Below are positions 1 through 48,510 of a DNA stretch of 64,000 bases, one piece after another. Positions within the stretch are counted from its first letter, which is position 1. Every line of letters begins with the position of its first letter. Origin of the DNA: Candidatus Parcubacteria bacterium (lineage in GTDB: Bacteria; Patescibacteriota; Minisyncoccia; Sungbacterales; SURF-37); the NCBI GenBank assembly GCA_003599755.1, contig QZJO01000009.1:150362-214361 (forward strand). The letters run 5' to 3'. Below the pieces are notes generated by a model. The model saw only the letters and a program-made list of their open reading frames with translations, was not told where the DNA came from and did not search any database. A program made the translations under genes and the position numbers.

Positions 1-309
1 GTCATGCCCTTCCCGAATTTTCTCCACCAGCGCCGGGATTCGCTCCGGCAGCGAATTCCCGTCGGGGCTGAAGGTAATGATGGCGTCTCCCGTAATATGC
101 GGCAGCGCCTCGAGATATCCTTGGCGGAGTCCGCGCTTTTTTTGACGGACGACCACGAGGCCGAGGGACTCGGCGTACTCCACCGTGCCGTCTGTCGATC
201 CCCCGTCCACGACCACAATCTGGTCCACCCACTCGCGCCGAATCTGCGGCATCGTACGGCGCATGCCCTCGATTTCATTGAGCGTCGGAATGAGCAAGCT
301 GACATTCAT
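1..309 (-). CDS. Glycosyltransferase family 2, Dpm1/GtrB-like polyprenyl-phosphate sugar synthase (N-terminal ~103 aa in window; gene continues past position 1)
   Basis: Reverse-complement translation from ATG at 307-309: MNVSLLIPTLNEIEGMRR...VVVDGGSTDGTVEYAESLG...ITFSPDGNS, i.e. GT2 N-terminus with DxD-type motif; start overlaps stop of downstream epimerase (ATGA). Confidence 0.7.
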   Translation of the reverse strand, partial: MNVSLLIPTLNEIEGMRRTMPQIRREWVDQIVVVDGGSTDGTVEYAESLGLVVVRQKKRGLRQGYLEALPHITGDAIITFSPDGNSLPERIPALVEKIREGHD

Positions 310-1241
310 ATGCGGTGCGTCGCCTTAAACCATGCGACAGTTTCGCTCAAGCCGTCGGTGAGCTTTACCGTGGGGCGGTAGCCGAGGATGCGGCGCGCCC
401 GGCGAATATCAACCCAGAACCGATCTACTTCGGCTGGTTTCGGCGGCTTGCGGATCGGTCGATTGTTCGGGCGGCCAAGAATCGCTGCGAGCGCGGCGTA
501 TAAATCCGCCATATCAGTCTCTTTGCCGGAGCCGATATTGAAGACGGGATCGCCCCGATACCCGCGGATCTCCATGGCCGCGAGATTGGCCCGGACAATA
601 TCGGTGACGTGGACATAATCGCGGGTCTTTGCGCCGTATATCGCCGCGCGCCGGCCGTTTGAAATTTTCAGTATGTAATCTTCAATAACCCGAGATACCT
701 GCCGCGGCCCGTAGACCGTGCTGTAGCGGAGAATGACAGAATCGAGGCCGTGATGCTCGCGGTAAAATTTCAGATACTGCTCACCCGCGAATTTTGAGAT
801 ATTGTACGGGGCAAGCGGCTGGAATGGCTCGGTTTCGGGCGTAGGAAATCGCCCGGCGTTCCCGTAAATATACCCCGACGAAGCGTAGAGCACTCGTTTC
901 GCCGTGTGCGCGCGAGAGAACTCGAGGAGATTGAGGAGGCCGGCGAGTCCTGCGACGTCGCGCAGCGGCTCGACTATGGAAACCGGAGGGTTGGATACCG
1001 CGGCGAACGCAAAAACATACTCGGGCTTCTCCCGGCGGAATACATTGCCGAGCGCCCGCGAAGCCGTCGGCATCCGGTAGAACCGGACGTTGGGGTGCAC
1101 GTTTTCGCGCCGTCCGCTGGACAGATCGTCCACCACGGCCACGCGCGCCCCTTGAGCGACGAGCGCATCAACCGTATGCGAGCCAATAAACCCCGCACCG
1201 CCGGCGACGAGCACCCTTCGATGGTTCCAAAATTTCTTCAT
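306..1241 (-). CDS. NAD-dependent nucleotide-sugar epimerase/dehydratase (extended SDR)
   Basis: N-terminal Rossmann motif VLVAGGAGFIGSH, YxxxK-type core; 311 aa. Confidence 0.8.
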   Translation of the reverse strand: MKKFWNHRRVLVAGGAGFIGSHTVDALVAQGARVAVVDDLSSGRRENVHPNVRFYRMPTASRALGNVFRREKPEYVFAFAAVSNPPVSIVEPLRDVAGLAGLLNLLEFSRAHTAKRVLYASSGYIYGNAGRFPTPETEPFQPLAPYNISKFAGEQYLKFYREHHGLDSVILRYSTVYGPRQVSRVIEDYILKISNGRRAAIYGAKTRDYVHVTDIVRANLAAMEIRGYRGDPVFNIGSGKETDMADLYAALAAILGRPNNRPIRKPPKPAEVDRFWVDIRRARRILGYRPTVKLTDGLSETVAWFKATHRI

Positions 1242-1312: not shown

Positions 1313-2671
1313 TCATTTCGCCGCACGAAGGATTGCAGCGGCAAGACGTTCGGCCGCGTGGCCGTCGAACGGGCCGCACTGTTCCGCGACAAGACGTGAG
1401 CGCGCCTCGCGATCTTGGGCAGGATCCGCCAGGTATGCCTGGATCATCCCCAATAATTCGTCAGGACTTTTGGGCATGCGGATCGCGCCGGTGGCGAGGG
1501 CATTTTTGTAGTGTGCCATCTGGTAAAACTGCGTCGGCGACTTCAACAGGCGCTCGTTCACGTGCATTTCAAAATCGATGTTAATGATCGGCTTATCGAA
1601 GCAGGCCGCGTCCACGCTCATGCTCGATGCATAGCAGATGAGCATCTCCATATGCGCGAGCGTATCGGCAAGGTGCGTGAGCTCATCTTCTCCCATGTCC
1701 CAATCCACGCCGCGCGCGGCCGAGAAGCGCGTCCCAGGACGATCGTAGCGGAGCCACGGCCGTCGTTCCATCTCCTGTTTCGCGAACGTGTCGTTGGGCT
1801 GGAAGCGCACAAAGAGTTTTACCTCCGGCCCGAACGAACCGTTCGTCTCCCAGCGATGCAAAAGATCGATGATGTCCCAGTCCGACGTGGAAAACGCCTC
1901 GCCCATCGGGGCGTACAGCACGAATCGCTCGTTCGGCGCAAGACCGATTTTTTTTAAAAAATCGGAGCGAAACGTCGGCCGATACCCTACATAGCGGTCA
2001 TACTGCGGAATGCCCGCAATCGCAATCCGTTCGGCCGGCATATCCGCGTATTGGATCGCCTCGTCGCGCACGATCGCATTGAACACCAGAAGCGTATCGG
2101 GAAGTAGGCGCAGCGCGGAGCGCGCCGTGAGTTTGTCCCACGAGTTGATGAAGCCGATAACCGGCACCCTGCGGCGCTTCGCCTCGCGCACGAGCGCGTT
2201 TTCAGCATCATCGAACAGATGCGCCGCCAATACCGCCCGCGGCTGATAGCGCTCGAACAACGGCGCAAAGGTATGGTCGCGCGCGAACCGCTCGTCGATG
2301 CGGCGCAGCCACGCCCGCACGCGCGGTCGCGCGAGCCAGCCGTTGATGCGTTTGCCGATGCGGTATCCCACCGCGCGCTCGCGACGCTCCCAGATCATGC
2401 GGCGGCGCAGATCCGTCGTCGCGGTCTTGAGCGTGAAAAATTTGAGCCGTGCCAAAAGCCGCTCCCAAAACCCGCGCGGCTGCCAGCGCACCACTTCGTA
2501 ACGCAGCCGCGGATCCGAAAATTCCTTTGCGTAATGTTCCTTGCGACTTTCGCTCGTAACGAGCAGCACCACTTCGGTATCGTCCCCGGCGAGCAGATAC
2601 CGTACGACGCCGGTACGCAAAAGGTTCTTTGCCTCCACGCCTTGAAAAAGCGTTACGAAGACCGTTTTCAT
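1313..2671 (-). CDS. TagF/TagB-family (Glyphos_transf) CDP-alcohol phosphotransferase-like polymerising enzyme, paralog 1
   Basis: Motifs GIPQYDRY (cf. TagF GYPRxD), VLYAPMGEAF (cf. vLYAPTwR), ICYASSMSVDAACFDKPIINIDF (cf. DYSSvmfDfaltgKPiI). Confidence 0.55.
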   Translation of the reverse strand: MKTVFVTLFQGVEAKNLLRTGVVRYLLAGDDTEVVLLVTSESRKEHYAKEFSDPRLRYEVVRWQPRGFWERLLARLKFFTLKTATTDLRRRMIWERRERAVGYRIGKRINGWLARPRVRAWLRRIDERFARDHTFAPLFERYQPRAVLAAHLFDDAENALVREAKRRRVPVIGFINSWDKLTARSALRLLPDTLLVFNAIVRDEAIQYADMPAERIAIAGIPQYDRYVGYRPTFRSDFLKKIGLAPNERFVLYAPMGEAFSTSDWDIIDLLHRWETNGSFGPEVKLFVRFQPNDTFAKQEMERRPWLRYDRPGTRFSAARGVDWDMGEDELTHLADTLAHMEMLICYASSMSVDAACFDKPIINIDFEMHVNERLLKSPTQFYQMAHYKNALATGAIRMPKSPDELLGMIQAYLADPAQDREARSRLVAEQCGPFDGHAAERLAAAILRAAK

Positions 2672-4032
2672 GACGCAGTGATGATCCGTTCTATGAATGC
2701 GACCGTGCGCTCGGCACTCTTGCCGTCGCGGAACGGCACGTATTTGGCGAGGCAGCGGCGGCGGCCGTCATGGTCGCGCGCCGGATCGGCCAGATAGGCA
2801 TTCACCTCGGCGGCGAGCGATTCGATATCATCCGCACGCCGCACGCCGCCTGCCTCGACCATGCCGCGATTATATTCATACTCATACACGACGCGTCGGT
2901 GCGACGGGAACCCGATCGTAATAACCGGGCGGTCGAAAATCGCGGCCTCGATGATAATGGTCGAGACGAAATTGATCACCACGTCGGCATACCGAAGCGT
3001 TGCCGAAAGATTCATAAGATCATCTTCTCCCATTTCGATTTTTTGTCCCCCGGCAGAATCGGGCCTGGTTTGCCGGCCGGCCCGTTCGAAATGCAGCCAC
3101 GGCGCATGCAGGCCTGCATACGTATCGAGCGCGTCGTTCGGATGGATACGGATAAGGATATTCGGCTCGCCGGCAATGTGACCAGCGCGGCGCATCTTTA
3201 CAAGCCCTTCCACGAGTTCGCGCCGCGGCGGATAGTTCGACGGCGTGGGCCCGGCAAGCACGATCAGGGACTTTTGTGGATCCAATCCTTTAGACCGTAA
3301 GAATGTTTCGCGAGACGGGAATGCCGGATCTTTCGGATCGGCGAAGTAGTGGTCGAACCGCAGGCAACCGGCAATCGCAAGCTCTTCGTCGCGGTAGCCG
3401 TGCAGCGATTTGGCATCCTCGATCATGACGCTATTCCATACGGCCAAGAAATCCGTTTTGCGCATCATCTTGCCGTTTGAGGTGAGATTGTCGTGATTGA
3501 TATTGATGGCAGCGGTGCGGATTCCCAGCGCTTTGGCCGCGACAATCACCTCGGCCTCGAACGGCGTAAAACCGGGAGTCGCCGTGATAACCAGCACGGG
3601 ATGCTCGCGTTGGAACAGCGGCTTGAGCGTATCGGGTACGCCCGCGAAGCGCATCTCCCAACGGGTCAAGCGATCGGTCGTAAAGAGCCAGCGCGGAAAC
3701 AGAATCCGCGCGCGCATCAATAGTTTCCGGAATGACGCATGCGGCCGCTCGTAGAAATGGCGCATGTACGACAAATGGTCGAACGCCCGGGTGAGCGGCA
3801 CGCGCAAATATTTATCGAAAACATTCCAGAGGCGAGGCCGCGCGAGCGGCACGCGCGCGTAGCTGATGGTGGGGCCGCGCGGATAGCGGTCGCGCTCGGC
3901 CACAGCCGCGTCGATAGCCGGCGTGAGCACGACGACGCGGAAGCGTTCGGCCAAAAGCTCAATGCAGCCGGTGCGCAAGACATCGGAATAGTGGCTGAAT
4001 TGCGCGAGTGCGACAAAAACCGTCGGCATCAT
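2668..4032 (-). CDS. TagF/TagB-family (Glyphos_transf)-like protein, paralog 2
   Basis: Same architecture as paralog 1 (AGCLRFDHY, IVLAGPTPS, TIIIEAAIFDRPVITIGF); ATGA overlap with both neighbours. Confidence 0.5.
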   Translation of the reverse strand: MMPTVFVALAQFSHYSDVLRTGCIELLAERFRVVVLTPAIDAAVAERDRYPRGPTISYARVPLARPRLWNVFDKYLRVPLTRAFDHLSYMRHFYERPHASFRKLLMRARILFPRWLFTTDRLTRWEMRFAGVPDTLKPLFQREHPVLVITATPGFTPFEAEVIVAAKALGIRTAAININHDNLTSNGKMMRKTDFLAVWNSVMIEDAKSLHGYRDEELAIAGCLRFDHYFADPKDPAFPSRETFLRSKGLDPQKSLIVLAGPTPSNYPPRRELVEGLVKMRRAGHIAGEPNILIRIHPNDALDTYAGLHAPWLHFERAGRQTRPDSAGGQKIEMGEDDLMNLSATLRYADVVINFVSTIIIEAAIFDRPVITIGFPSHRRVVYEYEYNRGMVEAGGVRRADDIESLAAEVNAYLADPARDHDGRRRCLAKYVPFRDGKSAERTVAFIERIITAS

Positions 4033-4760
4033 GCAGCCAGATTCGGGAAGCCGCCTTTTTTGAGAATCAACTCGGCAACGTCAAAATCAAAATCGGTATC
4101 AAGATCCACCTGCGGATGGTCCACAAAATACGGCAATACTTTGTCACCGATCACTGATTTTTTCTCGCGGAGCGTCTGGTAGCGGACCACACCGATATTG
4201 GCGTTCGTCGCGTAGACCTTCGGCAAGAGTTGGCGCGGCATATTGAAATGTTCGGGAATGGCGCTTTGCGAAAGGAACGGCACCATGAACGCCCCTTCCA
4301 GCTTCCACATTTTGTGCGGCGTCTTGTCTGGCTCGTGCACCGAGCGAACCGAATCCGCTTCGGGAAACCGCGATAGAAGATCGAGCGCTTCTTCGATTTC
4401 CTTCGGAGCGCGGATAGGTCCGGTCGGCCGCAGATGCACGACGATATCCGGCTTCCATTTCTCATGTGCCTCGAGCCAATCAAGGCAATGCTCGAATACC
4501 GGATAATCCGGCGTCAGGTCCTCGGCCAATTCCGCCGGCCGCAAAAACGGGACTTCGGCGCCATAGCGTTTGGCAACGTCGGCAATCTCCTCCGAATCGG
4601 TCGATACGATTACGCGGTCGATCGCCGGCGAGGCCTTGGCGGCGATGATGCTGTAGGCAATCAGCGGCTTGCCCGCCAAAAGCCGCAGATTCTTTTTCGG
4701 CACGCCCTTGGAACCGCCGCGGGCCGGGATCAGAGCGAGAACGGATGCATTCCTATACAT
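4029..4760 (-). CDS. Acylneuraminate cytidylyltransferase family (CMP-nonulosonate synthetase, NeuA/PseF/LegF-like), copy 1
   Basis: N-terminal LIPARGGSKGVPKKNL motif of CTP_transf_3 family; 243 aa. Confidence 0.8.
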   Translation of the reverse strand: MYRNASVLALIPARGGSKGVPKKNLRLLAGKPLIAYSIIAAKASPAIDRVIVSTDSEEIADVAKRYGAEVPFLRPAELAEDLTPDYPVFEHCLDWLEAHEKWKPDIVVHLRPTGPIRAPKEIEEALDLLSRFPEADSVRSVHEPDKTPHKMWKLEGAFMVPFLSQSAIPEHFNMPRQLLPKVYATNANIGVVRYQTLREKKSVIGDKVLPYFVDHPQVDLDTDFDFDVAELILKKGGFPNLAA

Positions 4761-4947: not shown

Positions 4948-6150
4948 CTAACTACCTCCCCTTCTCTTCTCGACGGGAATCATCCCGACCGATGCATGAC
5001 CGGCACTATTGGCGATGATGGCGGCGGCGTACCGGTTTCCGTCCAACATCCCGAAGCGCCGCCGCAACTCTTCATTGCGGGCCCGAATGCCCGGCCGCAA
5101 TGCATCGCTGTCGGAGATCAGCTCTTGAAGGGACTCGCCGCGCCATACGATGCCAAGACCCAAGACCTCGATGCAGCGGTTGTTGTAGAGGATCTCCGGA
5201 TCATCAGCCGGGTCGAAGTCGGGCACCACGAGCGGCGTACCCGAGAGCTGCGACAACCACACCGACCCCCAGCCGGCCCGCGCGAATTGGAACAGGATCG
5301 CCGGATTCGGCACCACATGGGGCAGCATACGCTCGCCCCCGGGCACCGCGTCGGGATCGTTGGTATACAGATGCATGCCGAGCGCCTTGGCTTCCTGAAA
5401 GAGGCGCTCGAGCCCGGGAATCCCGGTTACGGTCACGAAGATACCGACATCGAGCGGGTCGTCGTTAGGCGCCGGCGGCGTGATCGTCGGCGGGATCGCG
5501 CGCTCCGTTCGATACCGGCGCATGCGGCCCTCCAGATACGAGAACGTGCCCGGCTCGGCGAGGCCAACGAACTTGGCCTTTTCTTCCAGAACGCGGAGCA
5601 TCGGGATCGCTTCGCGCACGAGATTGCGGTCGACCTTGACCATCTCGGATGATTCCCCGAGCACGTGCTCGAGAATCTCGGAGATATGAGCGAACGTGAC
5701 GTCGTAGCGCGGCGAGATGCCGAAGTCGACCCGCGGCGAACGAGCAAGCTGCAAGACGATGTCGCTTCCCGGCACGGCGTTCGATTCGCCGGACAGGTTC
5801 TGGACCGCGAGCTGGCCAGCAAGATACATCTGCGCATCCCGGCTCGCATCGGCGCCTTCGGTCACGAAGCTCTTGAGCGCGGTCTCGTAGTCGCTCTCAC
5901 CGTAGAACACCCGCTTCAGGATGGCGCCCAGCGTCGCATCCAGGAGGATCTCGCCCGGATGCTTTATGTCGTGCTGCGCGAATTCTTCGAGCATGACCCG
6001 CCTCTGGTCTTCGCCGTACACCCAGGGGACGATGATTCCGAGGCGCTCTTGGCGCCGGCCTTCCCGCGCGGCATTGAGCGCCAGCGCGAGTTCCACGGTT
6101 CGGAGGTACGGCCCCCGCCCGTAGGCGAAATTTACAACTGCGTAGCGCAT
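4948..6150 (-). CDS. GT-B fold glycosyltransferase/UDP-sugar hydrolase (MurG/PseG-like C-terminal signature)
   Basis: C-terminal ARAGWGSVWLSQLSGTPLVVPDF...DDPEILYNNRCIEVLGLGIV resembles the GT1/GT28 nucleotide-sugar binding motif; sits between NeuA-like and NeuB-like genes. Confidence 0.4.
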   Translation of the reverse strand: MRYAVVNFAYGRGPYLRTVELALALNAAREGRRQERLGIIVPWVYGEDQRRVMLEEFAQHDIKHPGEILLDATLGAILKRVFYGESDYETALKSFVTEGADASRDAQMYLAGQLAVQNLSGESNAVPGSDIVLQLARSPRVDFGISPRYDVTFAHISEILEHVLGESSEMVKVDRNLVREAIPMLRVLEEKAKFVGLAEPGTFSYLEGRMRRYRTERAIPPTITPPAPNDDPLDVGIFVTVTGIPGLERLFQEAKALGMHLYTNDPDAVPGGERMLPHVVPNPAILFQFARAGWGSVWLSQLSGTPLVVPDFDPADDPEILYNNRCIEVLGLGIVWRGESLQELISDSDALRPGIRARNEELRRRFGMLDGNRYAAAIIANSAGHASVGMIPVEKRRGGS

Positions 6151-6228: not shown

Positions 6229-7200
6229 TTATGCCGCGAGCGAGCGCTCGTCCCAATTTTGAACCCATTCTCCGCCTATATTACTGGCGAAGCGGCCGCG
6301 GTAATAGTCGCGGTTCAGCATCTCGGTATGCGTCATGTCGCGCGTCGCCGAACCGAGCATCACGCGCCAATCCGGAATTTCGCGTTCCAGCAGCGTCATG
6401 CGTTCCTCGCGCGACCGCTTGGCAAAATCCGCGAGCTCGCGCAATTGATCGGGATTGATGGATACCGGGCCATCCTTGGTAGCATCGGCCGGAAGAATCG
6501 TGAAATGCCGCTCGATATAATCGGCGCCCAGGGCCAACGCCGCCTTTGCCGCTTTGATCCCGTCGCGGGCGACGAGCGTATGGTCGGACCAGCCGACTTC
6601 GGGCGCGAATTGGCGGAGCCAATCCATGCGCGCCAAATTCGACATGGCAAGCGTATTCGGATAGCTCGTCACGCAATGGAGCATCGCATAGGGCTTGCCG
6701 GACGCCTTCAAGATTTCCGATGCCTTGGCGATCTCGTCATCGAGCGTCGCGCCGGTCGAGACGACCAAGCGGTCAAACGATCCGGTAAGATCCCGCAGCA
6801 TGGGAAAGCTCGCGCAGTCGTAGCTCGCGACCTTCACCAATTTCTCCTTCCACGGCAACGACGCCGCGAATGGGATGCGCTTCTTCGCGAACACGGTCAT
6901 CATCGGCGCCACGCCCGCCCGATGCGCTTCTTCGATGAAAAAATGATAGTCGTCTTCGGCCAAATCCAGCGACGCAAGCCGCGCCTTCTCCGGCTCGAAC
7001 GGACGCTGGATGGCTTTACGCACGCCGTTGGATTCCACGACGCCGGTTTCAAACCGCTCGCGGGGATGCAGATCTTCGGAAAAAATAATCTGGCCCTTCA
7101 CAATATCCGCGCCGGCCTCGGCCGCGCGCTGAATCATATCGCGAAGGACCCGGCGGTCCCCTTTGTGGTTCTGGCAAACCTCGGCGATTAGTTTGGCCAT
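6229..7200 (-). CDS. N-acetylneuraminate synthase family (NeuB/PseI/LegI-like), copy 1; no obvious C-terminal SAF domain
   Basis: N-terminal IAEVCQNHKGD (NeuB IAEIGxNHNGD motif), TIM-barrel-like length 323 aa. Confidence 0.75.
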   Translation of the reverse strand: MAKLIAEVCQNHKGDRRVLRDMIQRAAEAGADIVKGQIIFSEDLHPRERFETGVVESNGVRKAIQRPFEPEKARLASLDLAEDDYHFFIEEAHRAGVAPMMTVFAKKRIPFAASLPWKEKLVKVASYDCASFPMLRDLTGSFDRLVVSTGATLDDEIAKASEILKASGKPYAMLHCVTSYPNTLAMSNLARMDWLRQFAPEVGWSDHTLVARDGIKAAKAALALGADYIERHFTILPADATKDGPVSINPDQLRELADFAKRSREERMTLLEREIPDWRVMLGSATRDMTHTEMLNRDYYRGRFASNIGGEWVQNWDERSLAA

Positions 7201-8487: not shown

Positions 8488-9066
8488 TCAGGCGCGTGAT
8501 GGTTTTTCAAAAATGAATTCGATCTCGTCGAACCCGCCGACCCAATAACACCAGAGGCGGCTGGCAAGCGCCGGCGCGGCATTCGCGAATGCCGAAACCA
8601 CGGCATTGACGGCGCGCGCGGCCGCGATGCGGACCGCGCCGTACCCCATGTGCGGTAAGAGATGGAAATGGGCAATGTAGCTCAGGCGCATGCGCCGCAG
8701 GAGAAATTCGGTGCCGGTATACCCGGACTTCGTGAACGCAGCATTGAAATATAACGGAAACGTCACGTCGAATCCGTGCGCGTGCTCGGCATGCGTAAAT
8801 CCACGGCTAAAGTGCGGCACTTTGACATGCAGCACGCCGCCGGGCCGGAGAATACGATTGAGCTCGGCCATCACCGCAAACGGCCGATCCAGATGCTCGA
8901 GAACGTGGAATGCCTCGATCCGGTCGAACGACCGGTCCGGAAACGGATACGGCAGGACGTTCAGATCGTGCACCACGTCGGGATGCACGCCGGCCTGCCA
9001 ATCCACGTTGACGTAGCCGTCTTTGCGGTCTTCGCCGCAGCCGAGGTTGAGTTGTTTCAGTTCCAT
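8488..9066 (-). CDS. Class I SAM-dependent methyltransferase (Methyltransf_11-like)
   Basis: LNLGCGEDRKDGYVNVD motif I and ILRPGGVLHVKVP motif. Confidence 0.7.
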   Translation of the reverse strand: MELKQLNLGCGEDRKDGYVNVDWQAGVHPDVVHDLNVLPYPFPDRSFDRIEAFHVLEHLDRPFAVMAELNRILRPGGVLHVKVPHFSRGFTHAEHAHGFDVTFPLYFNAAFTKSGYTGTEFLLRRMRLSYIAHFHLLPHMGYGAVRIAAARAVNAVVSAFANAAPALASRLWCYWVGGFDEIEFIFEKPSRA

Positions 9067-11018
9067 GATAGCCGCCAGACGCGCCAGGCATCCGGTGATT
9101 CCGCATCACTATAGACCGGCTCGGCACCGAGCCGCAACAGGCAATCCGGATCGCTCCGCATGGGCTCGACGCCCGGCCGCGCGACTACGTAGGCGATGCC
9201 GAGGCGGCGCAGACCATTGGGATCGCATGCGGACTGAAATGCCTCGTATGCGGCCAGCTCTTCCGCGTAGCCCCAGCCGACGATGAACGGGCCGGGCGCG
9301 AAGCGTCCAGTCTCGCGGATGAATTCCTCGCTGAACGGATAGAACCGGTCGGTATGCGCCGAGTTGCCCCGTACCCACGCATAAAGACGCGCCGCTTCGG
9401 GTACCGGCGCGTCGGGTATGCCGAGAAACGGCCGGGAAAAATCGCCGACGAATCCGAGCGGCGTCAACGTATAGATAACGAGAAACGCCAGCGCGGTTCC
9501 GCCCATGGCGAACGCCGCGACGCCGACCGCGGCCGTCCGCCAGGAAAACCGCCGCCACGCGCCGGATCGCTCAACGATTTCGGCGAGCAACATGCCGGCA
9601 AGAAACGAAAAGAGTTGGGTCGAAAACGCGAAGAACCGTTCCATTTCCCGCGGGCGGGTTTCGTAGCGAACCGCCAGCGGTACAAGAAACGCGATGGCCG
9701 GGATCATAGCTATGAACAGGGCCCTCGGATTACCGCGGAAGCGCCATGCCGCGAACGGAAACAGCGCGAGCGGCAGGCCGAACTCAAGAAAGAATGACGG
9801 ACGAAACGGCAACACGCCCTTGTCCGTAATTTCGGTATTCCAAAAATCCTCCACGAATGCGAATGCTTGCGGTTCCTCGGATTGTCCGAGCGTGGAGAGA
9901 ATCCCGCCCTGCCAAAACGCCATCGCGGTACCCACACCGAGTATGATTGCCGTGACGGCAATCGCGCGCCCCGGCGTCCCGGGTATCGCGCGCGCGAACC
10001 GAGTAGGCCAGATGCGGCCGAGCGGCCCGGCGGCGATCCCCGCGGCGACAAATGCCGCAAACAGTACGGCAACATGCGTCTCGAGCGCGAGCGCAGCGTA
10101 GCCGTACGCGATGCCTGCCACAAGCGCGAACGCGAACCAGCGCGTACCGGTCGCGAGCGCGCGCAGATAGGCGTAGAGAGCCACGAGCAGTACTGGCAAT
10201 CCGAGCGCCGTGGTGTGATTGGATGCCATCACGAAGCTCGAATCGAACCGCGGCGTTGTCATGGCCGCCAAAAACGCCCATGGCGCATCGCGCGCCTCGC
10301 CGAGTATGAATGTCTGCCAAAGGCCGACTATGCCGGGGACCACCGCGAGCCAAGCGAGTCCTCCGCCGATGCCGAAAAATACCGCGCCCCATACCGCCGC
10401 GTGCGTACCGAAGCCGAGCTCGCGCGCGAGCGCAAACGCCATGAGCAATCCGGCAAAAACGAAGAGGAACGTCTGCAGATCGTAACCGATCCACAGCGGC
10501 GTACCGGCTACGCGGGAAAATATCGCAGAGAGCATTTCGGGCGCGTAGTGGTACGCGACCGGATGATCGGGCGCGGACGGATCCGACACCGGCAGATTGC
10601 CTTCAGCGATCGTAGCTGCGAGCGGCAGATGGCCGAGCTTCACGTCTGAATCCTGCAACGTGCGGAGCGCGACAATACCGGCCAGCGCCGCGATGCCAAG
10701 CGCGATGCCGAACAGCACGAAGGCCTCGTGCCGCGAAATATCGCCGCGCTCAAGCGATGCCGCCTGCCGCGCGGCAAGCCATTGCCAGCCGAACGCGGCT
10801 GAAAGCGCCATGAGGCCGAGTATGAGCCAAACCGCGGCGTCGAACGGGAGGAAAAATCCCGCAGCGTTGACCGCCGCGCCGAGCGTTCCGAACCCGGCAA
10901 TGATCGCTATCGGCGCAACGGCCCAGACGCGCCGCTCGCCCAATATACCCACGGCAACAAGGCCGCCGAACGCGGCCGCGACCCCGAGCAGTCCGATAAA
11001 GAAAATAATGCTGAGCAT
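9057..11018 (-). CDS. Polytopic integral membrane protein with ~200-aa C-terminal soluble domain (possible glycan polymerase/GT-C-like; family unclear)
   Basis: At least 12 hydrophobic segments then a non-hydrophobic tail; architecture resembles the 40413-42131 protein. Confidence 0.45.
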   Translation of the reverse strand: MLSIIFFIGLLGVAAAFGGLVAVGILGERRVWAVAPIAIIAGFGTLGAAVNAAGFFLPFDAAVWLILGLMALSAAFGWQWLAARQAASLERGDISRHEAFVLFGIALGIAALAGIVALRTLQDSDVKLGHLPLAATIAEGNLPVSDPSAPDHPVAYHYAPEMLSAIFSRVAGTPLWIGYDLQTFLFVFAGLLMAFALARELGFGTHAAVWGAVFFGIGGGLAWLAVVPGIVGLWQTFILGEARDAPWAFLAAMTTPRFDSSFVMASNHTTALGLPVLLVALYAYLRALATGTRWFAFALVAGIAYGYAALALETHVAVLFAAFVAAGIAAGPLGRIWPTRFARAIPGTPGRAIAVTAIILGVGTAMAFWQGGILSTLGQSEEPQAFAFVEDFWNTEITDKGVLPFRPSFFLEFGLPLALFPFAAWRFRGNPRALFIAMIPAIAFLVPLAVRYETRPREMERFFAFSTQLFSFLAGMLLAEIVERSGAWRRFSWRTAAVGVAAFAMGGTALAFLVIYTLTPLGFVGDFSRPFLGIPDAPVPEAARLYAWVRGNSAHTDRFYPFSEEFIRETGRFAPGPFIVGWGYAEELAAYEAFQSACDPNGLRRLGIAYVVARPGVEPMRSDPDCLLRLGAEPVYSDAESPDAWRVWRLSWN

Positions 11019-11024
11019 ACGCTG

Positions 11025-12905
11025 CTATCGCCCCCTCCCGAGCCACCGCCGATGCCATAGCAAGAACACCATCAACGTCCAAAGCTGCTTGCGGTTGTCC
11101 CGCCGGCGGGCGCGATGGTCATCGAGCAGCCGCTGGACTTCAGCCGCGTCGAACAGGCCGACGGACGCAACCGAGCGAGGCGACAAAAGATCCGTCGCAA
11201 ATTCTCGAAGTTCGCCGTTCAGCCAGCGCGTCAACGGGATGCCGAAACCCTTTTTCGGCCGATCCGCGATGCCTGCCGGCAGTCGGGACCGCATGAGCGC
11301 CTTCAAAATGTATTTGGTCGTAAGGCCCCGGCATTTCCAATGGTACGGCAGCCGGTGCGCAAACTCCACGACGCGGTAATCGAGAAACGGCGCGCGCACT
11401 TCAAGGGCTGAACGCATGCTCGCGCGATCCACTTTCACGAGCACGCCATCCATCAGATACGCGCGCAGATATTCATACAGCACTCGCTGCATCGGGTCGG
11501 CATGCGCAAGCTCGGCGCGCCAGCGGTCCACGTCGTCGAATTCGTTTTCGGCCGCGAGCGCGCGCCACGCATCCGGCCGGAACAGGCGCGCGCGCTCGTC
11601 GCGATCGAACGCGGCAAGCCACCGCGCGTGACGATAGCGTTCCGGTCCGCGAAGCCCGCGCAGAAATCGCGTCGCCTTGAATCCGAAGCTGAAATTGGTG
11701 TCGCGCACCGGCAGGCGCGACACCCAGGACTCGGCTAATCCGCGCACCGCAGCGGGCAGCCGGCGTACGAACGCCGCGAGTCGTTCCGCGGGGAACGTCG
11801 GATAGCCGGCGAAAAGTTCGTCGCTGCCGTCGCCGCCGAGCGCGACGGTCACGCGGCGGCGGGCAAACTTCGCGAGCAAAGCGCTGGGCAACAGCGACGC
11901 GTCGGCCAACGGCTCATCGGCAAGATCGGCAATTTCCGGCACAAGCTTCAGTACGTCGCCGGCAACGAACGCCGTCTCATGGTGCGTGGTTCCGAGATAT
12001 TCGGCTACGCGCCGCGCATACGGCGCCTCGTCAAAACTCTCCTCGTGGAAGGAGATCGAAAACGTCTCGACCGGCGTACGACTCGCCTGGACCGCGTAGT
12101 AGGCCACGGTCGAGCTGTCCAGGCCTCCGGAGAGCAGCACGCCGACCGGCACGTCGGCCGCGAGGCGCGGAGTCACGCTTGCCGCGAGCAAACGATCGAG
12201 CTCGACCGTCGCATGCGCGAGGCCGATCGGCTCGGCCGGCGCATCCGGAAGGCGCCAATACGCGCCGGTGCGCTTCACGCCGTCCTTCCAGACCAGATAT
12301 GATGCCGGCGACAACTTTTGGATATGCTTGAAGATCGTCCGCGGGGCGGGAACGTATTCGTATGCGAGATACTTGTTGAGCGCGACCAGATCCAATTCGC
12401 GCGTCACCGCCGGATGCGCTACGAGCGCTTTCAATTCGGAACCGAATACCAGCGTATTGCCGAACGCGCCCCAGAAAAGCGGCTTTTTGCCGAAGCGATC
12501 GCGCGCGAGCGTAAGTTCGCCGGTCTTGGTGTCGAAGAGCGCGAGTGCGAACATGCCATTCAGCCGGGCGAATGCGCCGGTGCCGAATTCGTCCCAGAGC
12601 GCCAGAATGACCTCGGTGTCTGATTCCGAACGGAATGTTCGCCCGCGCGCGGCAAGTTCGGCGCGCAGTTCCCGGAAATTATAGATTTCGCCGTTAAACG
12701 TGATCCAAACCGTCCGGTCGGCGTTCGGCATGGGTTGGTGTCCGGCCGGGCTCAGGTCGAAAATCGCGAGGCGCGCGTGCGCAAGCCCCGCGCCCTCTCC
12801 CGTCCAAATACCGCCGCCGTCCGGTCCGCGGTACCGAATGGCGCCGATCATTTGTTCCAGATCATCCCGCCCGCCCGCACCGACGAATCCCGCGATGCCG
12901 CACAT
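11025..12905 (-). CDS. Asparagine synthetase (glutamine-hydrolysing) family amidotransferase, AsnB/WbpS/PseA-like
   Basis: Start at MCGIAGF (N-terminal nucleophile Cys2), RGPDGGG, SGGLDSS PP-loop motif; the upstream in-frame 56-codon extension is judged non-coding. Confidence 0.8.
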   Translation of the reverse strand: MCGIAGFVGAGGRDDLEQMIGAIRYRGPDGGGIWTGEGAGLAHARLAIFDLSPAGHQPMPNADRTVWITFNGEIYNFRELRAELAARGRTFRSESDTEVILALWDEFGTGAFARLNGMFALALFDTKTGELTLARDRFGKKPLFWGAFGNTLVFGSELKALVAHPAVTRELDLVALNKYLAYEYVPAPRTIFKHIQKLSPASYLVWKDGVKRTGAYWRLPDAPAEPIGLAHATVELDRLLAASVTPRLAADVPVGVLLSGGLDSSTVAYYAVQASRTPVETFSISFHEESFDEAPYARRVAEYLGTTHHETAFVAGDVLKLVPEIADLADEPLADASLLPSALLAKFARRRVTVALGGDGSDELFAGYPTFPAERLAAFVRRLPAAVRGLAESWVSRLPVRDTNFSFGFKATRFLRGLRGPERYRHARWLAAFDRDERARLFRPDAWRALAAENEFDDVDRWRAELAHADPMQRVLYEYLRAYLMDGVLVKVDRASMRSALEVRAPFLDYRVVEFAHRLPYHWKCRGLTTKYILKALMRSRLPAGIADRPKKGFGIPLTRWLNGELREFATDLLSPRSVASVGLFDAAEVQRLLDDHRARRRDNRKQLWTLMVFLLWHRRWLGRGR

Positions 12906-12909
12906 GGCA

Positions 12910-13875
12910 TTAGGGCGCGCTTCGCTCGTGCACGCTCTCGACGACATAAAACGGCTTCTGAGTCGCGGCGTATTGCGTGCGGATGAGCATCTCGGCGAAC
13001 AATCCCATAAGAATGAACTGCACGCCGATGATGGCGAACAGGACCGCGACCGCCGGCAGCGGCGTGGCCACAAACGATTTTCCCTCGCCGTACTTCAGCC
13101 AGACCATAACGGCGAAGGTCAAAGCGCTTGCCGCCAAACTCCAGAAGCCAAACCAGCCGAAGAAATGCATCGGCCGCGAACGGAATCTCCGAAAAAAATA
13201 ATGCGCGAACACGTCGAGTACGACCTTGAAGGTCCGGGAAAAGCCGTATTTGGACGTACCGAACTGCCGCGGCGAAAATCGAATCGGCACCTCGGCGATG
13301 CGCCCGCCGGCATGCACGGCCATCATGCGGTGCATGTCGCCAATGAACGCGAGCGATACGATCCGATCGCGGCGGTAGACCTTCAGCGGACAGCCGTGAT
13401 CATGCAGCCGAACGCCGCTGACCCATGAAATAAGCGTATTGGCGAGCATCGAGGGAATGCGCCGCGTGAACAGATGATCCCGCCAGCGATCGCGGCGCCA
13501 GCCCGATACCACGTCGTATCCTTCGGCAAACTTTTCCAGAAGCGATGGAATATCATCCGGATCGTTCTCCAGATCGCCGTCAAGCGTCACGATAATGCGA
13601 CCGCGCGAAGCATGGATGCCGGCCGCGAGCGCGGCGGTCTGGCCATAGTTCTCGCGCAAGCGAATGAAATGGAGCGGCGCGCATCGTTCGGCCGCGGCGG
13701 CCGTTCCATCGGTCGAGCCGTCGTCGACGAAAATAAGCTCCCAGGTCATCGGCATGCGCCCGAGCGCTTTGCACAGGCGCGCATGCAGCCGCGGCAGCGA
13801 TTCTTCTTCATTGAAAAACGGTACCACGACCGAAAGGTCGAGTCGCGCGATTGCATTGGCATCGGAATTCGGCAT
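12910..13875 (-). CDS. Glycosyltransferase family 2, Dpm1/ArnC/GtrB-like polyprenyl-phosphate glycosyltransferase with two C-terminal TM helices
   Basis: LSVVVPFFNEE, FVDDGSTDGT, VTLDGDLENDP motifs; hydrophobic C-terminus. Confidence 0.8.
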   Translation of the reverse strand: MPNSDANAIARLDLSVVVPFFNEEESLPRLHARLCKALGRMPMTWELIFVDDGSTDGTAAAAERCAPLHFIRLRENYGQTAALAAGIHASRGRIIVTLDGDLENDPDDIPSLLEKFAEGYDVVSGWRRDRWRDHLFTRRIPSMLANTLISWVSGVRLHDHGCPLKVYRRDRIVSLAFIGDMHRMMAVHAGGRIAEVPIRFSPRQFGTSKYGFSRTFKVVLDVFAHYFFRRFRSRPMHFFGWFGFWSLAASALTFAVMVWLKYGEGKSFVATPLPAVAVLFAIIGVQFILMGLFAEMLIRTQYAATQKPFYVVESVHERSAP

Positions 13876-13880
13876 GGAGC

Positions 13881-14942
13881 TTAGTGCACGTGGGACTCCA
13901 GAATTTGCTCGTCGGCTTCGATCATGACGCGGGCGGTCTTTCCGACGATTCGGTCGGCCATCGCCGGCGCCAATCCGCCTTTGCCCGGCCGTTTGAACGC
14001 GATCATATCCCGCGTAATAGCCATACCCGCCGCGATATCCCTGCGCGCCACGATAGCCTGGCTCGCCCAGTTGCGGCCGGTCTCGAGTCGCCGCAGCCGC
14101 TCTGCATCCGGCACCGGCCGCAAAGCCGCTTCCACATCGCGGATCTGGCGCACCATGAGCTTGAACTCCGCGGGCAAAAGCGCCCCCGGGTTATCGAGCG
14201 AACGCGGATCGTCCTTATCAAAGGTAAGGTGTTTTTCGACGACGCATGCGCCGAGCGCCACGGCAGCAAGGACAACCTGCCAGCCCACCGAATGATCCGA
14301 GATGCCGACCGGCAGGCCCGTCAATTCGCCGATGCGCCGCATCCGCGTAAGGTCGATTGCATCGTACGGCGTGGGATACAGCGTCGTACAATGCAGCGCG
14401 ATCATCGGCCCCGCGCCCGCCTGGCTGAGTGTGTCGATCGCGCGCACGACCTCGTCATCCGACTGTAAGCCGAACGATATCATGATGGGCTTTTTCGCCG
14501 CGCCGACCCGCTTGAGAAAATCTATGTTGCCCGCCTCCCCGGACCCGATCTTCAGAAACGGCGGATCGAATTCGCGGAGCAAAAGATCCAAACTCTCTTC
14601 CTCATGCGCCGTTGCGAAAAACGGGTAGCCCGCCGTGCGCGCGTAACGCGCGAGATCGGCGAGCGCCTCGAGTGATAGTTCCTTGTATTTCACGCGTTCG
14701 AACCAATCGAAGCCAAGCTCCGGCGCAAGGCGCTTGGCGACTTTCCTGCTGATTAATGCCTCGGTGTTCGTCACCTGAAACTTCACGATATCCGCACGCG
14801 CGGCCGCTGCGGCATCTACCTGGCGTTTGGCGAGTTCCAGATCTCCATAATTGGTAACGCCGCCTTCGCAAATAACGAAAACGGGTTGGCCGGGGCTGAT
14901 AATCCGACTGCCGGCGCGAAATGGCGGCTGGGATTGATTCAT
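13881..14942 (-). CDS. N-acetylneuraminate synthase family (NeuB/LegI/PseI-like) with C-terminal SAF domain, copy 2
   Basis: VFVICEGGVTNYGD motif, SAF-like C-terminus (IVARRDIAAGMAI...); start chosen at the ATG giving ATGA overlap with the upstream gene (alternative ATG at 14963). Confidence 0.8.
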   Translation of the reverse strand: MNQSQPPFRAGSRIISPGQPVFVICEGGVTNYGDLELAKRQVDAAAAARADIVKFQVTNTEALISRKVAKRLAPELGFDWFERVKYKELSLEALADLARYARTAGYPFFATAHEEESLDLLLREFDPPFLKIGSGEAGNIDFLKRVGAAKKPIMISFGLQSDDEVVRAIDTLSQAGAGPMIALHCTTLYPTPYDAIDLTRMRRIGELTGLPVGISDHSVGWQVVLAAVALGACVVEKHLTFDKDDPRSLDNPGALLPAEFKLMVRQIRDVEAALRPVPDAERLRRLETGRNWASQAIVARRDIAAGMAITRDMIAFKRPGKGGLAPAMADRIVGKTARVMIEADEQILESHVH

Positions 14943-15901
14943 AGCGGATGTCGGCGGCACCATTGCACGGTAAGCTCGGCGATATGAAGCATCGATTTTT
15001 CCGTGGCTTCTCTCGTAGCGCCGCCCAGATGCGGGACGATAATCATATTCTCATGAGTCCGGGCATAGTCAACCAGCGGATGCGTTTTGACGTGCGCGCC
15101 ATCGGGCGTCTCGCCGGCCAGCGTATCCACTGCCGCACCGGCAATGCGCTTGGCCTTGAGTGCAGCCAAGAGCGCGGATTCGTCCGCGATCTCGCCCCGC
15201 GCGGTATTGATGAACACTGCCGTCGGTTTCATCAGGCGGAAATGCCGGGCACCGAGCATACCGGCAGTTCTATCGCTGTACACGCAATGCACCGAAACGA
15301 CATCGGCGGCGCGCAACAGCGCGTTAAGCCCAGCGCGGCGCGCGCCGCCGCGAGCCATTGCGCTTGCCGAAACATACGGATCATAGGCGATCACGCGCAT
15401 GCCGAACGCGCGCGCATAGCGCGCGACATACGAACCGAGCCGCCCGAAGCCGATGACGCCGAAGGTCTTGCCGGCGAGCTCATGGCCACCGTACCGGCGC
15501 CGTTCCCAGCGCCCCGCCTCCAGCGAGCGCATGGCCCAGGGAATATTGCGCACGAGCGCGAGTACGAGCGCGAACGTCTCTTCGGCCGTGGACGGAATTT
15601 GGCGCAATACCGGGGAGTCGCCTTTGATATGCACGACAGCGATCCCCCGCCGCGCGGTTTCAGCGCGGTCGATGTGCCGCAGCTGTGTGGTGCGCGAGGC
15701 GACAAGCTCGAGGCGCGGCGCGCGATCCAGCACGGCTTTGGTGAAATTCACCTCCAGCCCTGCGACCACGACATGCGCGCGCGGCAAATTTTTAAAAAAC
15801 ACCGAGCGGCTGCCGAACGGAATAACGCGGCCGACGCGCGCCAGCATACGCATTGCCTGCGGGCTGAATTCCCGTTCTGCGATAAGGATAACGCGCTTCA
15901 T
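14939..15901 (-). CDS. D-isomer-specific 2-hydroxyacid dehydrogenase (NAD-binding; glycerate/phosphoglycerate dehydrogenase-like)
   Basis: GVIGFGRLGSYVARYARAFGMRV Rossmann motif; FINTARGEIADESAL; catalytic H in VPHLGG. Confidence 0.75.
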   Translation of the reverse strand: MKRVILIAEREFSPQAMRMLARVGRVIPFGSRSVFFKNLPRAHVVVAGLEVNFTKAVLDRAPRLELVASRTTQLRHIDRAETARRGIAVVHIKGDSPVLRQIPSTAEETFALVLALVRNIPWAMRSLEAGRWERRRYGGHELAGKTFGVIGFGRLGSYVARYARAFGMRVIAYDPYVSASAMARGGARRAGLNALLRAADVVSVHCVYSDRTAGMLGARHFRLMKPTAVFINTARGEIADESALLAALKAKRIAGAAVDTLAGETPDGAHVKTHPLVDYARTHENMIIVPHLGGATREATEKSMLHIAELTVQWCRRHPL

Positions 15902-16629
15902 ACGAGCCCTGCCCGAATTATGCATTCGGCGAGCGCCAAGTCGTTCGGCGTATTAATATCGAACGCGCCGAGCTCATCGATACCGAGACCGACGCGCCGA
16001 CCGACTTCAAGGCCGTGTTCTCGGAAAAATGCGTCGCGCCTGAACCAGTAGCAGTTGCCGAACGCATAGCGCCTGGGGTCCGATTGGCGCGTCGGATGGG
16101 CATAATGCATTTCGGGCTGATCGAATTCCAAAAATCCCTTATCAGTCATGCGGCGCACATGATAGGGATGGAAAATGCGCGGCACCTCGATACAGGTAAT
16201 GCCCGAATCGGCGCCCTTGGTCGTTACGAGTTCGAATAGCCGATCGATATGGTCCGACCGGATGAACGGTTCCGTGGGCTGAGCGAGCAACACGTATTCG
16301 GGTGCGTAGTGCTCATGCTCTTCAAGCCACCGGAGCGCATGATCCACGACGGGAATCATCGGCGTAGAATCCTCGGCCAATGCGGCAGGACGCACATACG
16401 GCGTCTCGGCGCCGTATTGGCGCGCAATCGCGGCGATCTCCTCGTTATCGGTATCGACGATCACCCGCCGTACTGAGTGCGCATGGTGTATTGCCGCCAA
16501 AACATACGCAAGCAACGGTTTACCGGCGAGGGGATGAATATTCTTTTTCGGAATCATTTTCGATCCCCCGCGTGCGGGAATGATCGCCAACGTTTCCTGC
16601 GGCTCGTCTCTGGTCACAGTCATGGTCAT
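15898..16629 (-). CDS. Acylneuraminate cytidylyltransferase family (CMP-nonulosonate synthetase), copy 2
   Basis: IIPARGGSKMIPKKNI motif; 243 aa. Confidence 0.8.
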   Translation of the reverse strand: MTMTVTRDEPQETLAIIPARGGSKMIPKKNIHPLAGKPLLAYVLAAIHHAHSVRRVIVDTDNEEIAAIARQYGAETPYVRPAALAEDSTPMIPVVDHALRWLEEHEHYAPEYVLLAQPTEPFIRSDHIDRLFELVTTKGADSGITCIEVPRIFHPYHVRRMTDKGFLEFDQPEMHYAHPTRQSDPRRYAFGNCYWFRRDAFFREHGLEVGRRVGLGIDELGAFDINTPNDLALAECIIRAGLV

Positions 16630-16695: not shown

Positions 16696-17883
16696 CTATA
16701 GCGATCGCGTCTGGCGCCACTGCACCGTCGGCATGATCGCCTCGCGGTTGATGGCTTCCTTGGCTTCGCTCACCCGCCGCAGGAGCGACTGCACCAGTTC
16801 ATCCGACAACGCGGTCGGCGTGAGCCCGAGACGCAGGAGGTGGTCGTTGCGCGGGTTGTAGTAGTGGTCTTCTGCTTCGACCCGCGGGTTCTCGATCCGG
16901 CGGATCGTCGCATCCCATCCGAGTATGCGAGCCGCGTCGCAGACGGCCTTGGCAAGCTCGAATACGGAAAAGACCTCGGTGAACTGATTGAACACCCGGA
17001 ATTCGCCTGCCGCGGGAGGGTTCATGGAGGCGAGCTCAACGCACTGAATGGTGTCGCGGATGTTGAGGAACCCGCGCTTCTGATTCCCTCCTCCGTACAC
17101 GGTGATCGGATGGCCGGTCGCCGCCTGCACGACGAAGCGGTTCAGCGCCGTTCCGAACACGTGATCGTAGTGGAAACTCGTCACGAGCCGCTCGTTCATG
17201 TCCGTCTCGGGAGTAGAGATGCCGTAGACGACTCCCTGGTTCAGATCGGTCGCCCGCAACTTCCAGATCCGGCAGGCGAAGGAAATGTTCCCCGAGTCGT
17301 GAACTTTGGACCAGTGGTACCAGGATCCTGCCTGCTTCGGAAACGGAAGGGTGTCCTTCCGCCCCCGATGTTCGATCTCGATGAAGCCCTCCTCGATGTC
17401 GATGTTCGGGGTTCCGTACTCACCCATGGTCCCGAGCTTCACGAGGTGCGCGTGCGGCACCACCTCCTGCATGGCGTACAGCACATTCAGGGTTCCGATG
17501 ACGTTGTTCCGCTGCGTGAACGTCGCGCGGCGATGATCGATCATCGAGTACGGCGCCGACGGCTGTTCGGCGTAGTGGATGATCGTCTCGGGCCGGAACT
17601 CCTGAAAGACGTCCTTCAGAAACTCGAAATCGCCCGCGATGTCGCCCAGAGAGCTTCGGATCCGGAGACCCGAGCACTCGCGCCAGGCGGCGAGTCGCTG
17701 CCGCAACGATGGAATCGGGAACAGCGGCATGGCGCCGACTTCCTCCTCCCACCGCCGCTTGGCCATGTTGTCTACGATCGCGACGTCATGCCCCTTGGCC
17801 GAGAAGTGCAGCGCCGTGGGCCAGCCAAGATACCCATCGCCGCCAAGAACCAGGATCCGGAGTGGGCGGAAGTCGATCCGCAT
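16696..17883 (-). CDS. UDP-sulfoquinovose synthase (SQD1/SqdB)-like extended SDR
   Basis: Diagnostic N-terminus RILVLGGDGYLGWPTALHFSAKGHDVAIVDNMAKRRWEEEVG matches the SQD1 signature (GGDGYCGWATAL...IVDNLVRR); strong SD AAGGAGG 4 nt before the ATG. Confidence 0.7.
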   Translation of the reverse strand: MRIDFRPLRILVLGGDGYLGWPTALHFSAKGHDVAIVDNMAKRRWEEEVGAMPLFPIPSLRQRLAAWRECSGLRIRSSLGDIAGDFEFLKDVFQEFRPETIIHYAEQPSAPYSMIDHRRATFTQRNNVIGTLNVLYAMQEVVPHAHLVKLGTMGEYGTPNIDIEEGFIEIEHRGRKDTLPFPKQAGSWYHWSKVHDSGNISFACRIWKLRATDLNQGVVYGISTPETDMNERLVTSFHYDHVFGTALNRFVVQAATGHPITVYGGGNQKRGFLNIRDTIQCVELASMNPPAAGEFRVFNQFTEVFSVFELAKAVCDAARILGWDATIRRIENPRVEAEDHYYNPRNDHLLRLGLTPTALSDELVQSLLRRVSEAKEAINREAIMPTVQWRQTRSL

Positions 17884-24683: not shown

Positions 24684-24781
24684 GGGAAACGAGCGGAATG
24701 CGGATCCGCTCATTTATAATACGGCTTCCCTGCCTGCCCTGTTTCCTCCCCGTGCCTGTCGCGCTCGGAACTCTTTGTACG

Positions 24782-48425: not shown

Positions 48426-48476
48426 GGCCGTTCTCTCTACCGTACTGCTCGGACCAGCGCCCGCCAAGAAATAGTT

Positions 48477-48506
48477 GTCCCCGCCTACTCTCGGGCAGGC
48501 GGGGAC
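48477..48506 (-). terminator. Candidate intrinsic terminator after ORF 48511-48936
   Basis: Perfect 10-bp stem GTCCCCGCCT/AGGCGGGGAC followed on the minus strand by AACUAUUUCUU. Confidence 0.45.
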
Positions 48507-48510
48507 GAGC

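Follow-up and report, generated by a model that had tools for sequence, protein, structure and literature searches.

What reaction is catalyzed by the products of two adjacent, related genes that directly follow a cytidine monophosphate (CMP)-nonulosonate synthetase gene and distantly resemble enzymes of teichoic acid synthesis? The question is posed by a 64-kb stretch of DNA (hereafter the window), which is part of a 264-kb contig from a metagenome-assembled genome (MAG) labeled 'Candidatus Parcubacteria bacterium'. The two genes, which we call A and B, have two further paralogs in the window, C and D. An earlier note, made from the letters of this DNA, had taken A and B for TagF-like proteins that may build a teichoic-acid-like or phosphodiester-linked glycan. 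Our analysis points to a different activity: on balance, A–D would probably be glycosyltransferases that use a CMP-nonulosonate donor and work one after another on a lipid-linked glycan. The four genes are as follows:

2668–4032, minus strand: gene A, a 454-residue protein of the glycosyltransferase B (GT-B) fold, A clade; NHDNLT at residues 179–184, GCLRFDHY at 222–229, RIHPND at 295–300 and VSTI...FDRP at 356–369
1313–2671, minus strand: gene B, a 452-residue paralog, B clade; SWDKLT at residues 177–182, GIPQYDRY at 220–227, RFQPND at 289–294 and ASSM...FDKP at 348–361
23307–24713, minus strand: gene C, a 468-residue paralog, C/D clade; SWDNLT, GIPHYDRY and RLPPSD
21952–23310, minus strand: gene D, a 452-residue paralog, C/D clade; SWDNLT, GIPHYDQY and RFPPAD

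The description of A and B in the earlier note held at the level of the genes themselves. The two open reading frames (ORFs) lie next to each other on the minus strand and encode full-length paralogs of about 450 residues (28% identity, BLASTP E = 4e-38). The possibility of chance ORFs was ruled out by this paralogy and by hundreds of homologs. All of the quoted motifs could be located in the translations, namely GIPQYDRY in B, GCLRFDHY in A and the C-terminal motif of the S-S/T...KP type. The proposed translational coupling was also borne out, as both junctions are ATGA overlaps: GCATGATG at 4029–4032 joins the stop codon of the CMP-nonulosonate synthetase gene to the start of A, and TCATGAAA at 2668–2671 joins the stop of A to the start of B. 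The same kind of overlap connects the stop of C with the start of D, which corresponds to Met 53 of the listed 504-residue ORF. C and D are 26–31% identical to A and B. The note had placed this second pair at 21952–24683; the pair is indeed there, but gene C extends to 24713, position 24683 being its second in-frame Met. None of the four proteins has a transmembrane helix, and their net charge ranges from +5 to +11. In A, a basic helical insert of ~85 residues contains 17 Lys/Arg and 14 aromatic residues; judging from this composition, the insert could bind the membrane and make interfacial contact with a lipid-linked acceptor.

We then asked to which known family these proteins are closest. 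Among Pfam families the nearest is PF04464 (Glyphos_transf/TagF), which scores 33.0 bits for A, 24.5 for C and 21.9 for B, so that A and C are above and B is just below the gathering score of 22.1 bits. Gene D has no PF04464 match and shows instead a sub-threshold match to the N-domain of GT4 (Glyco_transf_4). In a sample of 37 family homologs, to which all following profile counts refer, PF04464 matched 32 members at E ≤ 0.01 (best E = 1.4e-15). An even broader match was obtained with NF046086, the BFO_1060 family of glycosyltransferases, named after the Tannerella proteins Tanf_01245 and TFUB4_00887 that transfer pseudaminic (Pse) and legionaminic (Leg) acids. It was detected in all 37 members (best E = 8.9e-26), in every case below the cut-off of 200 bits; the scores of the window proteins are 55 (A), 40 (B), 55 (D) and about 17 (C) bits. 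From these sequence comparisons, the window proteins appear to represent a sister family of NF046086 without being members of it. Of the other NCBIfam models, TIGR04396 ('surface carbohydrate biosynthesis protein') matched 30 of the 37 and TarB only three, again below curated cut-offs.

Other families fared worse. PF05159 (Capsule_synth, KpsC/KpsS) matched none of A–D at E ≤ 1 and none of the 37 homologs at E ≤ 0.01; a single weak match (E = 0.0012) came from a distant fusion protein, P0140. A KpsS/KpsC-like identity was therefore rejected, as was plain GT4, for which we found sub-threshold N-domain matches only (D and 4 of the 37 family members). Epimerase_2 (PF02350) gave weak matches in six of the 37, all under its gathering score of 30.6 bits. 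Thus, neither of the placements that the earlier note had named as contrary to its own, plain GT4 or KpsS-like, was found for the window proteins. Its TagF-like classification stands at the superfamily level, PF04464 being the nearest family, but with weak scores and no match for D.

Does the relationship with TagF include the catalytic residues? TagF-type enzymes need two invariant histidines. One, in W299-H300 of TarL (H444 of TagF), is the general base, and the other, H433 in the K-M-H-P motif of TarL, contacts the donor phosphate (PMC10901376). As a comparison sequence we used a staphylococcal TarL rebuilt from a frameshifted locus. It contains the motifs IIQVWHAVGAFK, TGVPRTD, ILFKMHP and SDYSS...FKRP, and the spacing between its WH and MHP motifs is 133 residues, equal to 433 minus 300. 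An hhalign alignment of the family with TarL pairs GCLRFD with GVPRTD, R295-x-H297-P with K-M-H433-P, and S357-T358 with S-S. According to the order of secondary structure elements, the WH loop would correspond to the loop that follows strand 172–176 of A and carries the family motif S-W-D-N-L-T.

Conservation was analyzed in 55 members from 21 non-redundant loci and the window, which fall into the A (20 sequences), B (12) and C/D (20) clades with three outliers. Asp 181 of the SWDNLT loop (codon 3492–3490 in gene A, where the motif reads NHDNLT) is invariant in all 55 sequences, and there is no conserved His in that loop. P145, G222, R295 and P369 are likewise invariant, and D227, R241, S357, T/S358, E/D362, R424, D436-G437 and R442 are retained in nearly all members. 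Position 297, the second His of TagF-type enzymes, behaves differently from clade to clade. His 297, which lies within RIHPND of A, is present in 20 of 20 A-clade sequences. The B clade has Gln in ten, including RFQPND of gene B, and Pro in two, and the C/D clade has Pro in 14, Tyr in three, Ala in two and Thr in one. With an Asp at what is by topology the first position in all members, and His 297 in the A clade only, the histidine pair of TagF is not kept.

Structural comparison was less discriminating. The AlphaFold model of A is confident (pLDDT, the predicted local distance difference test, is 92.7) and has a generic GT-B fold. Its best fold matches are NeuC (5zlr) and UDP-GlcNAc 2-epimerases, with scores of 23–24, followed by TarL (8va1; 21.8), PimA (2gej; 20.3), TagF (3l7i; 20.1) and a polysialyltransferase (5wc6; 15.1); no KpsC or WbbB structure is among the top 60. 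The earlier note had suggested a comparison with the TagF structure. The GT-B fold is indeed shared, but TagF is not singled out, as 2-epimerases match equally well; TagF membership can thus be neither established nor dismissed from the fold. Sequence searches against PDB retrieved nothing with A alone. With the C-terminal domain, TarL was the top match (E = 0.018), and with the N-domain profile the matches were marginal and limited to epimerases and monogalactosyldiacylglycerol (MGDG) synthase, so that the catalytic His could not be mapped in this way.

Genomic context also bears on the likely donor. With an alignment of 12 closer sequences, relatives were sought in a set of genomes that represents each species once, and four metagenome loci were added. 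In the scan, A-type relatives came only from MAGs of the candidate phyla radiation (Patescibacteria), variously labeled Saccharibacteria, Paceibacterota, Minisyncoccia, Harrison-, Yanofsky- and Taylorbacteria, with one exception. The exception is a 1.7-kb contig (L014, JBBSXY010000057.1) binned as a Nanoarchaeota archaeon, which encodes an A-type homolog of 36% identity; it could be a binning error or the result of transfer between ultra-small episymbionts. When the fetched flanks were searched with a tblastn panel, NeuB or CTP_transf_3 was found in 14 of the 17 non-redundant loci of at least 12 kb, and both were found in 11. Loci with NeuB/CTP_transf_3 include those whose homologs are just 24–29% identical to A. 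Each locus has one to four family paralogs, and in nine loci besides the window A is directly followed by B with a gap of 0–79 nucleotides. This set of paralogs and the succession of A and B are found over a G+C range of 28% to 70% in related loci (the window has ~60%). Searches for homologs of TagD, TarI and TarJ were negative in both the window and 21 related loci; this is weak evidence for TagD, the query sequence of which was approximate. For comparison, in an authentic tarL locus the tarL gene is immediately preceded by tarI/tarJ (IspD plus alcohol dehydrogenase).

The family is by no means confined to single-module proteins. An exhaustive profile search of 50%-identity cluster representatives retrieved 15,791 sequences at E ≤ 1e-3, 7,859 at E ≤ 1e-10 and 3,670 at E ≤ 1e-30. 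Many of these proteins have two or three tandem modules, for example P0129, in which a C/D-type module precedes a B-type one, and P0130, which has three. P0249 is a fusion of another type. Its N-terminal 215 residues are cytidylyltransferase-like, with a degenerate GGSKG motif, and align with the full length of the window CMP synthetase (22% identity, E = 9e-9). In other fusions the family module is joined to a Wzx flippase (P0184) or a methyltransferase (P0228). Many fusion proteins look actinobacterial and are encoded by high-GC DNA, with SWDNLT and RPHP in every module. We conclude that this is a large, uncharacterized, multi-paralog family that recurs across genomes of the candidate phyla radiation.

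Because the donor domain shares features with the CMP-releasing TagF enzymes, the neighboring gene product makes CMP-nonulosonate and an Asp apparently occupies the position of the base, we propose that the family transfers nonulosonate. A–D would be peripheral-membrane GT-B enzymes, a sister family of the TagB-like Pse/Leg transferases of Tannerella. Their C-terminal Rossmann domain would bind the CMP moiety of the donor much like that of TagF/TarL, whose CDP-polyol donors also release CMP, and the donor itself would be a CMP-nonulosonate, formed by the products of the neighboring genes for NeuB and the cytidylyltransferase. The Asp of the SWDNLT loop, at the presumed position of the catalytic His of TagF, may serve as the general base toward the acceptor hydroxyl, or alternatively as a nucleophile. 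The nonulosonate itself, and not a polyol-phosphate, would thus be placed onto a lipid-linked glycan that is then flipped by the Wzx protein of the locus. The three clades may add successive residues or form different linkages, which would account for the co-translated pairs here and the multi-module fusions elsewhere. Of this scheme, the paralogy, the fold, the conserved motifs, the gene context and the fusions are observed, and the donor, the acceptor, the function of the Asp and the sequential action are deduced from them.

How does the proposed activity compare with known systems? The closest precedent is provided by Tanf_01245 (GtfS) and TFUB4_00887 of Tannerella forsythia. According to knock-out, complementation and mass spectrometry data, they are needed for the addition of Pse5Am7Gra or a Leg derivative to the S-layer O-glycan; both have ~445 residues and a TagB domain, and both genes adjoin pseI (PMC5420450; PMC6120980). 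The window proteins are similar in size (~445–455 residues in both cases), GT-B fold, solubility and possession of a TagB-like domain, and they too are encoded beside nonulosonate synthase and cytidylyltransferase genes within a Wzx-dependent glycan locus. In addition, the Tannerella sugars carry decorations of the amidino and glyceroyl type, and the AsnB-like and 2-hydroxyacid dehydrogenase genes of the window could make such groups. In contrast, Tannerella has one enzyme per locus and the window four in three clades, only the N-terminal third of NF046086 aligns, and the host belongs to the candidate phyla radiation, not to Bacteroidota.

With TagF, TarL and TagB the window proteins have in common the GT-B fold, the GxPxxD linker motif, the S-S/T...(K/R)P motif of the donor domain, an N-domain insert that is helical and basic and, in the A clade only, the (K/R)-x-H-P strand; the donor probably also releases CMP. 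However, W-D apparently replaces the catalytic W-H, only A among the four proteins keeps the second His, and the additional N-terminal domain of the TagF polymerase is missing, along with a CDP-polyol synthase and the TagGH context. A parallel of another kind comes from KpsC (a dual GT107 enzyme), GT99, GT118 KpsS1 and GT140 KrkA, which use CMP-activated ulosonic acids and Asp/Glu-based catalysis; in these multi-module enzymes, two modules that differ in linkage specificity operate in tandem (PMC12887879). The tandem fusions of our family resemble this arrangement, whereas the model of A shows the standard GT-B architecture and not the modified one of GT99/GT107. Asp/Glu-dependent catalysis is also a feature of GT80 sialyltransferases. 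Finally, SpsB of B. subtilis, a TagB-domain protein, is encoded next to the genes of a CMP-Leg pathway and has been proposed as a Leg transferase; deletion of spsB, however, left Leg on spores (PMC7439481).

The surroundings of the four genes are those of a glycan locus, a single long minus-strand run of glycan genes from 306 to ~48,700. The features most relevant here are listed below:

306–1241, minus strand: NAD-dependent sugar epimerase/dehydratase of the short-chain dehydrogenase/reductase (SDR) type, 72 nucleotides downstream of B, last gene of its unit
4029–4760, minus strand: CMP-nonulosonate synthetase, CTP_transf_3 (Pfam 84.6 bits), PseF-like
4948–6150, minus strand: conserved 400-residue protein without a family match, with a confident predicted GT1-like GT-B fold
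6229–7200, minus strand: NeuB-type nonulosonate synthase 1 (NeuB1), without SAF domain, first gene past a hairpin
13881–16629, minus strand: second nonulosonate module of three genes
13881–14963, minus strand: NeuB with SAF domain
14939–15925, minus strand: 2-hydroxyacid dehydrogenase
15898–16629, minus strand: second CTP_transf_3 cytidylyltransferase
18004–19170, minus strand: hydrolyzing UDP-GlcNAc 2-epimerase NeuC_NnaA (302.7 bits, cut-off 235.9)
33736–35139, minus strand: Wzx-like flippase (Polysacc_synt)

For the CMP synthetase, the top NCBIfam match was PseF, with 157 bits against a cut-off of 205.7. The 400-residue protein may, to judge from its predicted structure, be a PseG-like nucleotide-sugar hydrolase analog or an additional transferase; its assignment to a known sialyltransferase type was rejected, the fold being GT1-like. 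NeuB1, the 400-residue protein, the CMP synthetase, A, B and the SDR gene follow one another in this order, and may make up one transcription unit or sub-operon bounded by the hairpin, on what is weak evidence. The hairpin itself (7303–7276, minus strand) lies between a 146-residue ORF and NeuB1 and has an 11-bp stem with eight G-C pairs and a T-containing tail; the overall number of terminators in the window is not above shuffled expectation. The presence of the Wzx-like flippase suggests that the glycan is assembled on a lipid carrier at the inner membrane face. The locus further encodes an AsnB-type amidotransferase, a formyltransferase, a deacetylase, several methyltransferases, a DegT aminotransferase, SDR enzymes, a UDP-glucose dehydrogenase, a sugar-1-phosphate nucleotidyltransferase, about eight GT4/GT2 enzymes and GT-C proteins of the PMT_2 type. 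A CDP-glycerol or CDP-ribitol synthase and an ABC exporter of the TagGH type were not found in the 64-kb window.

Several observations weigh against nonulosonate transfer by A–D. The NF046086 match is partial, covering about positions 42–170 of the 365 in the model, and far below 200 bits; the hhalign alignment is not confident at the WH loop, so that the equivalence of Asp 181 and TarL His 300 comes from topology and motif order; and B, C and D do not have the HP-motif His required by bacterial sialyltransferases. Three of the 17 long loci have neither NeuB nor a cytidylyltransferase within the flanks. At least four nonulosonate transferases per locus would be unusually many, and the adjacent 400-residue GT1-like protein is another candidate transferase, perhaps the real one. 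In addition, as SpsB is dispensable for spore Leg, a TagB-like domain in a Leg context is no proof of function.

Alternatively, A–D may be ordinary GT-B enzymes with a UDP-, GDP- or dTDP-sugar donor, whose link to the nonulosonate genes would reflect no more than a common target glycan; they might, for instance, attach the sugar to which a nonulosonate residue is added, or one that is added to it. We consider this possible, if rather unlikely. The weak Glyco_transf_4 matches of D and four of the 37 homologs fit such enzymes, as do the SpsB precedent and the other nucleotide sugars made in the locus by the UDP-glucose dehydrogenase, the DegT aminotransferase, the sugar-1-phosphate nucleotidyltransferase and a UDP-sulfoquinovose-synthase-like protein. 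On the other hand, the profiles nearest to the family describe two CMP-releasing groups, NF046086 and PF04464, the motifs of the C-terminal donor domain align with TarL, and both the coupling to the CMP synthetase and the P0249 fusion point to a CMP-activated donor; the other sugars already have the GT4/GT2 enzymes of the locus at their disposal.

It is clearly less probable that the proteins are true TagF/TagB phosphotransferases, which would take glycerol-, ribitol- or sugar-phosphate from a CDP donor made elsewhere in the genome and build a teichoic-acid-like polymer. PF04464 is, after all, the top Pfam family and TarL the top PDB match of the C-terminal domain; the window covers just 64 of the 264 kb of the contig, and bacteria of the candidate phyla radiation are thought to be Gram-positive-like in envelope. 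Yet Asp apparently takes the place of the first His throughout the family, B, C and D lack the second, the TagD/TarI/TarJ searches were negative (with the reservation made above for TagD), export would rely on a Wzx flippase with no TagGH-type ABC exporter, and the conserved neighbors are NeuB and CTP_transf_3. Polymerization of phosphodiester-linked polyols, which the earlier note had suggested from the TagF fold, is thus not supported: the histidine pair is apparently not kept, the neighbor is a CMP-nonulosonate synthetase with NeuB, and the profile counts favor NF046086 (37 of 37) over TarB (three); a teichoic-acid-like product is unlikely. Least probable is a role as nucleotide-sugar epimerases or hydrolases of the NeuC or PseG kind within the nonulosonate pathway. 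Epimerase_2 matches six homologs weakly, and 2-epimerases have a catalytic acidic residue after the same β-strand. However, these scores are all under the cut-off, the C-terminal S-S/T...KP motif resembles that of TagF, and the locus already has a genuine NeuC. Nor would a single pathway step call for three to four paralogs in a locus or for tandem fusions, and the basic helical insert suggests membrane association.

A bolder version of nonulosonate transfer can also be entertained, in which the A, B and C/D modules form a multi-module polymerase recurring in genomes of the candidate phyla radiation. Following a His-to-Asp switch on the TagF scaffold, it would make an oligo- or poly-nonulosonate polymer, like polysialic acid with alternating linkages, and A–B and C–D would be heterodimeric two-site enzymes comparable to the modules of KpsC. 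We regard this extension as doubtful.

To our knowledge, few transferases of Pse- and Leg-type sugars have been described, and there is no TagB-like one with a solved structure or a defined mechanism. If A–D do transfer nonulosonate, the family would illustrate the conversion of a phosphotransferase scaffold that releases CMP into one for glycosyl transfer, with a clear candidate for the catalytic Asp and a confident model. A conserved surface glycan with a high content of nonulosonic acids would also be indicated for the ultra-small, host-dependent bacteria of the candidate phyla radiation, whose attachment to the host probably depends on their surface chemistry. Our literature searches found no published report of nonulosonic acids in these bacteria. 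At a practical level, the annotation 'CDP-glycerol glycerophosphotransferase' should be treated with caution in this group, and so should teichoic acids deduced from such labels.

A few other genes bear on the composition and destination of the glycan. Within the glycan locus, the product of the gene at 16696–17883 (minus strand) resembles UDP-sulfoquinovose synthase (NF041015; 479 bits against a cut-off of 575), a hint that the glycan contains a sulfonated 6-deoxy sugar. Two polytopic membrane proteins without a family match, encoded at 9057–11018 and 40413–42131 (both minus strand; 653 and 572 residues with ~12 and ~10 hydrophobic segments), could each be the Wzy-like polymerase, the ligase or a GT-C enzyme of this glycan. 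Three further genes (46878–48689, minus strand; 48945–50681, plus strand; 35181–37649, minus strand) encode a secreted-looking protein with LTD and PKD domains, at the head of the locus, and two PMT_2 (ArnT/PMT-like GT-C) proteins, of which one is a fusion with GT2. They suggest that, once outside the membrane, the glycan may be handed over to a protein or to a polymer of the wall. Lastly, the AsnB ORF as listed (11025–13073, minus strand) begins with TTG and overlaps the upstream GT2 gene (12910–13875) by ~160 nucleotides; its true start is probably further downstream.

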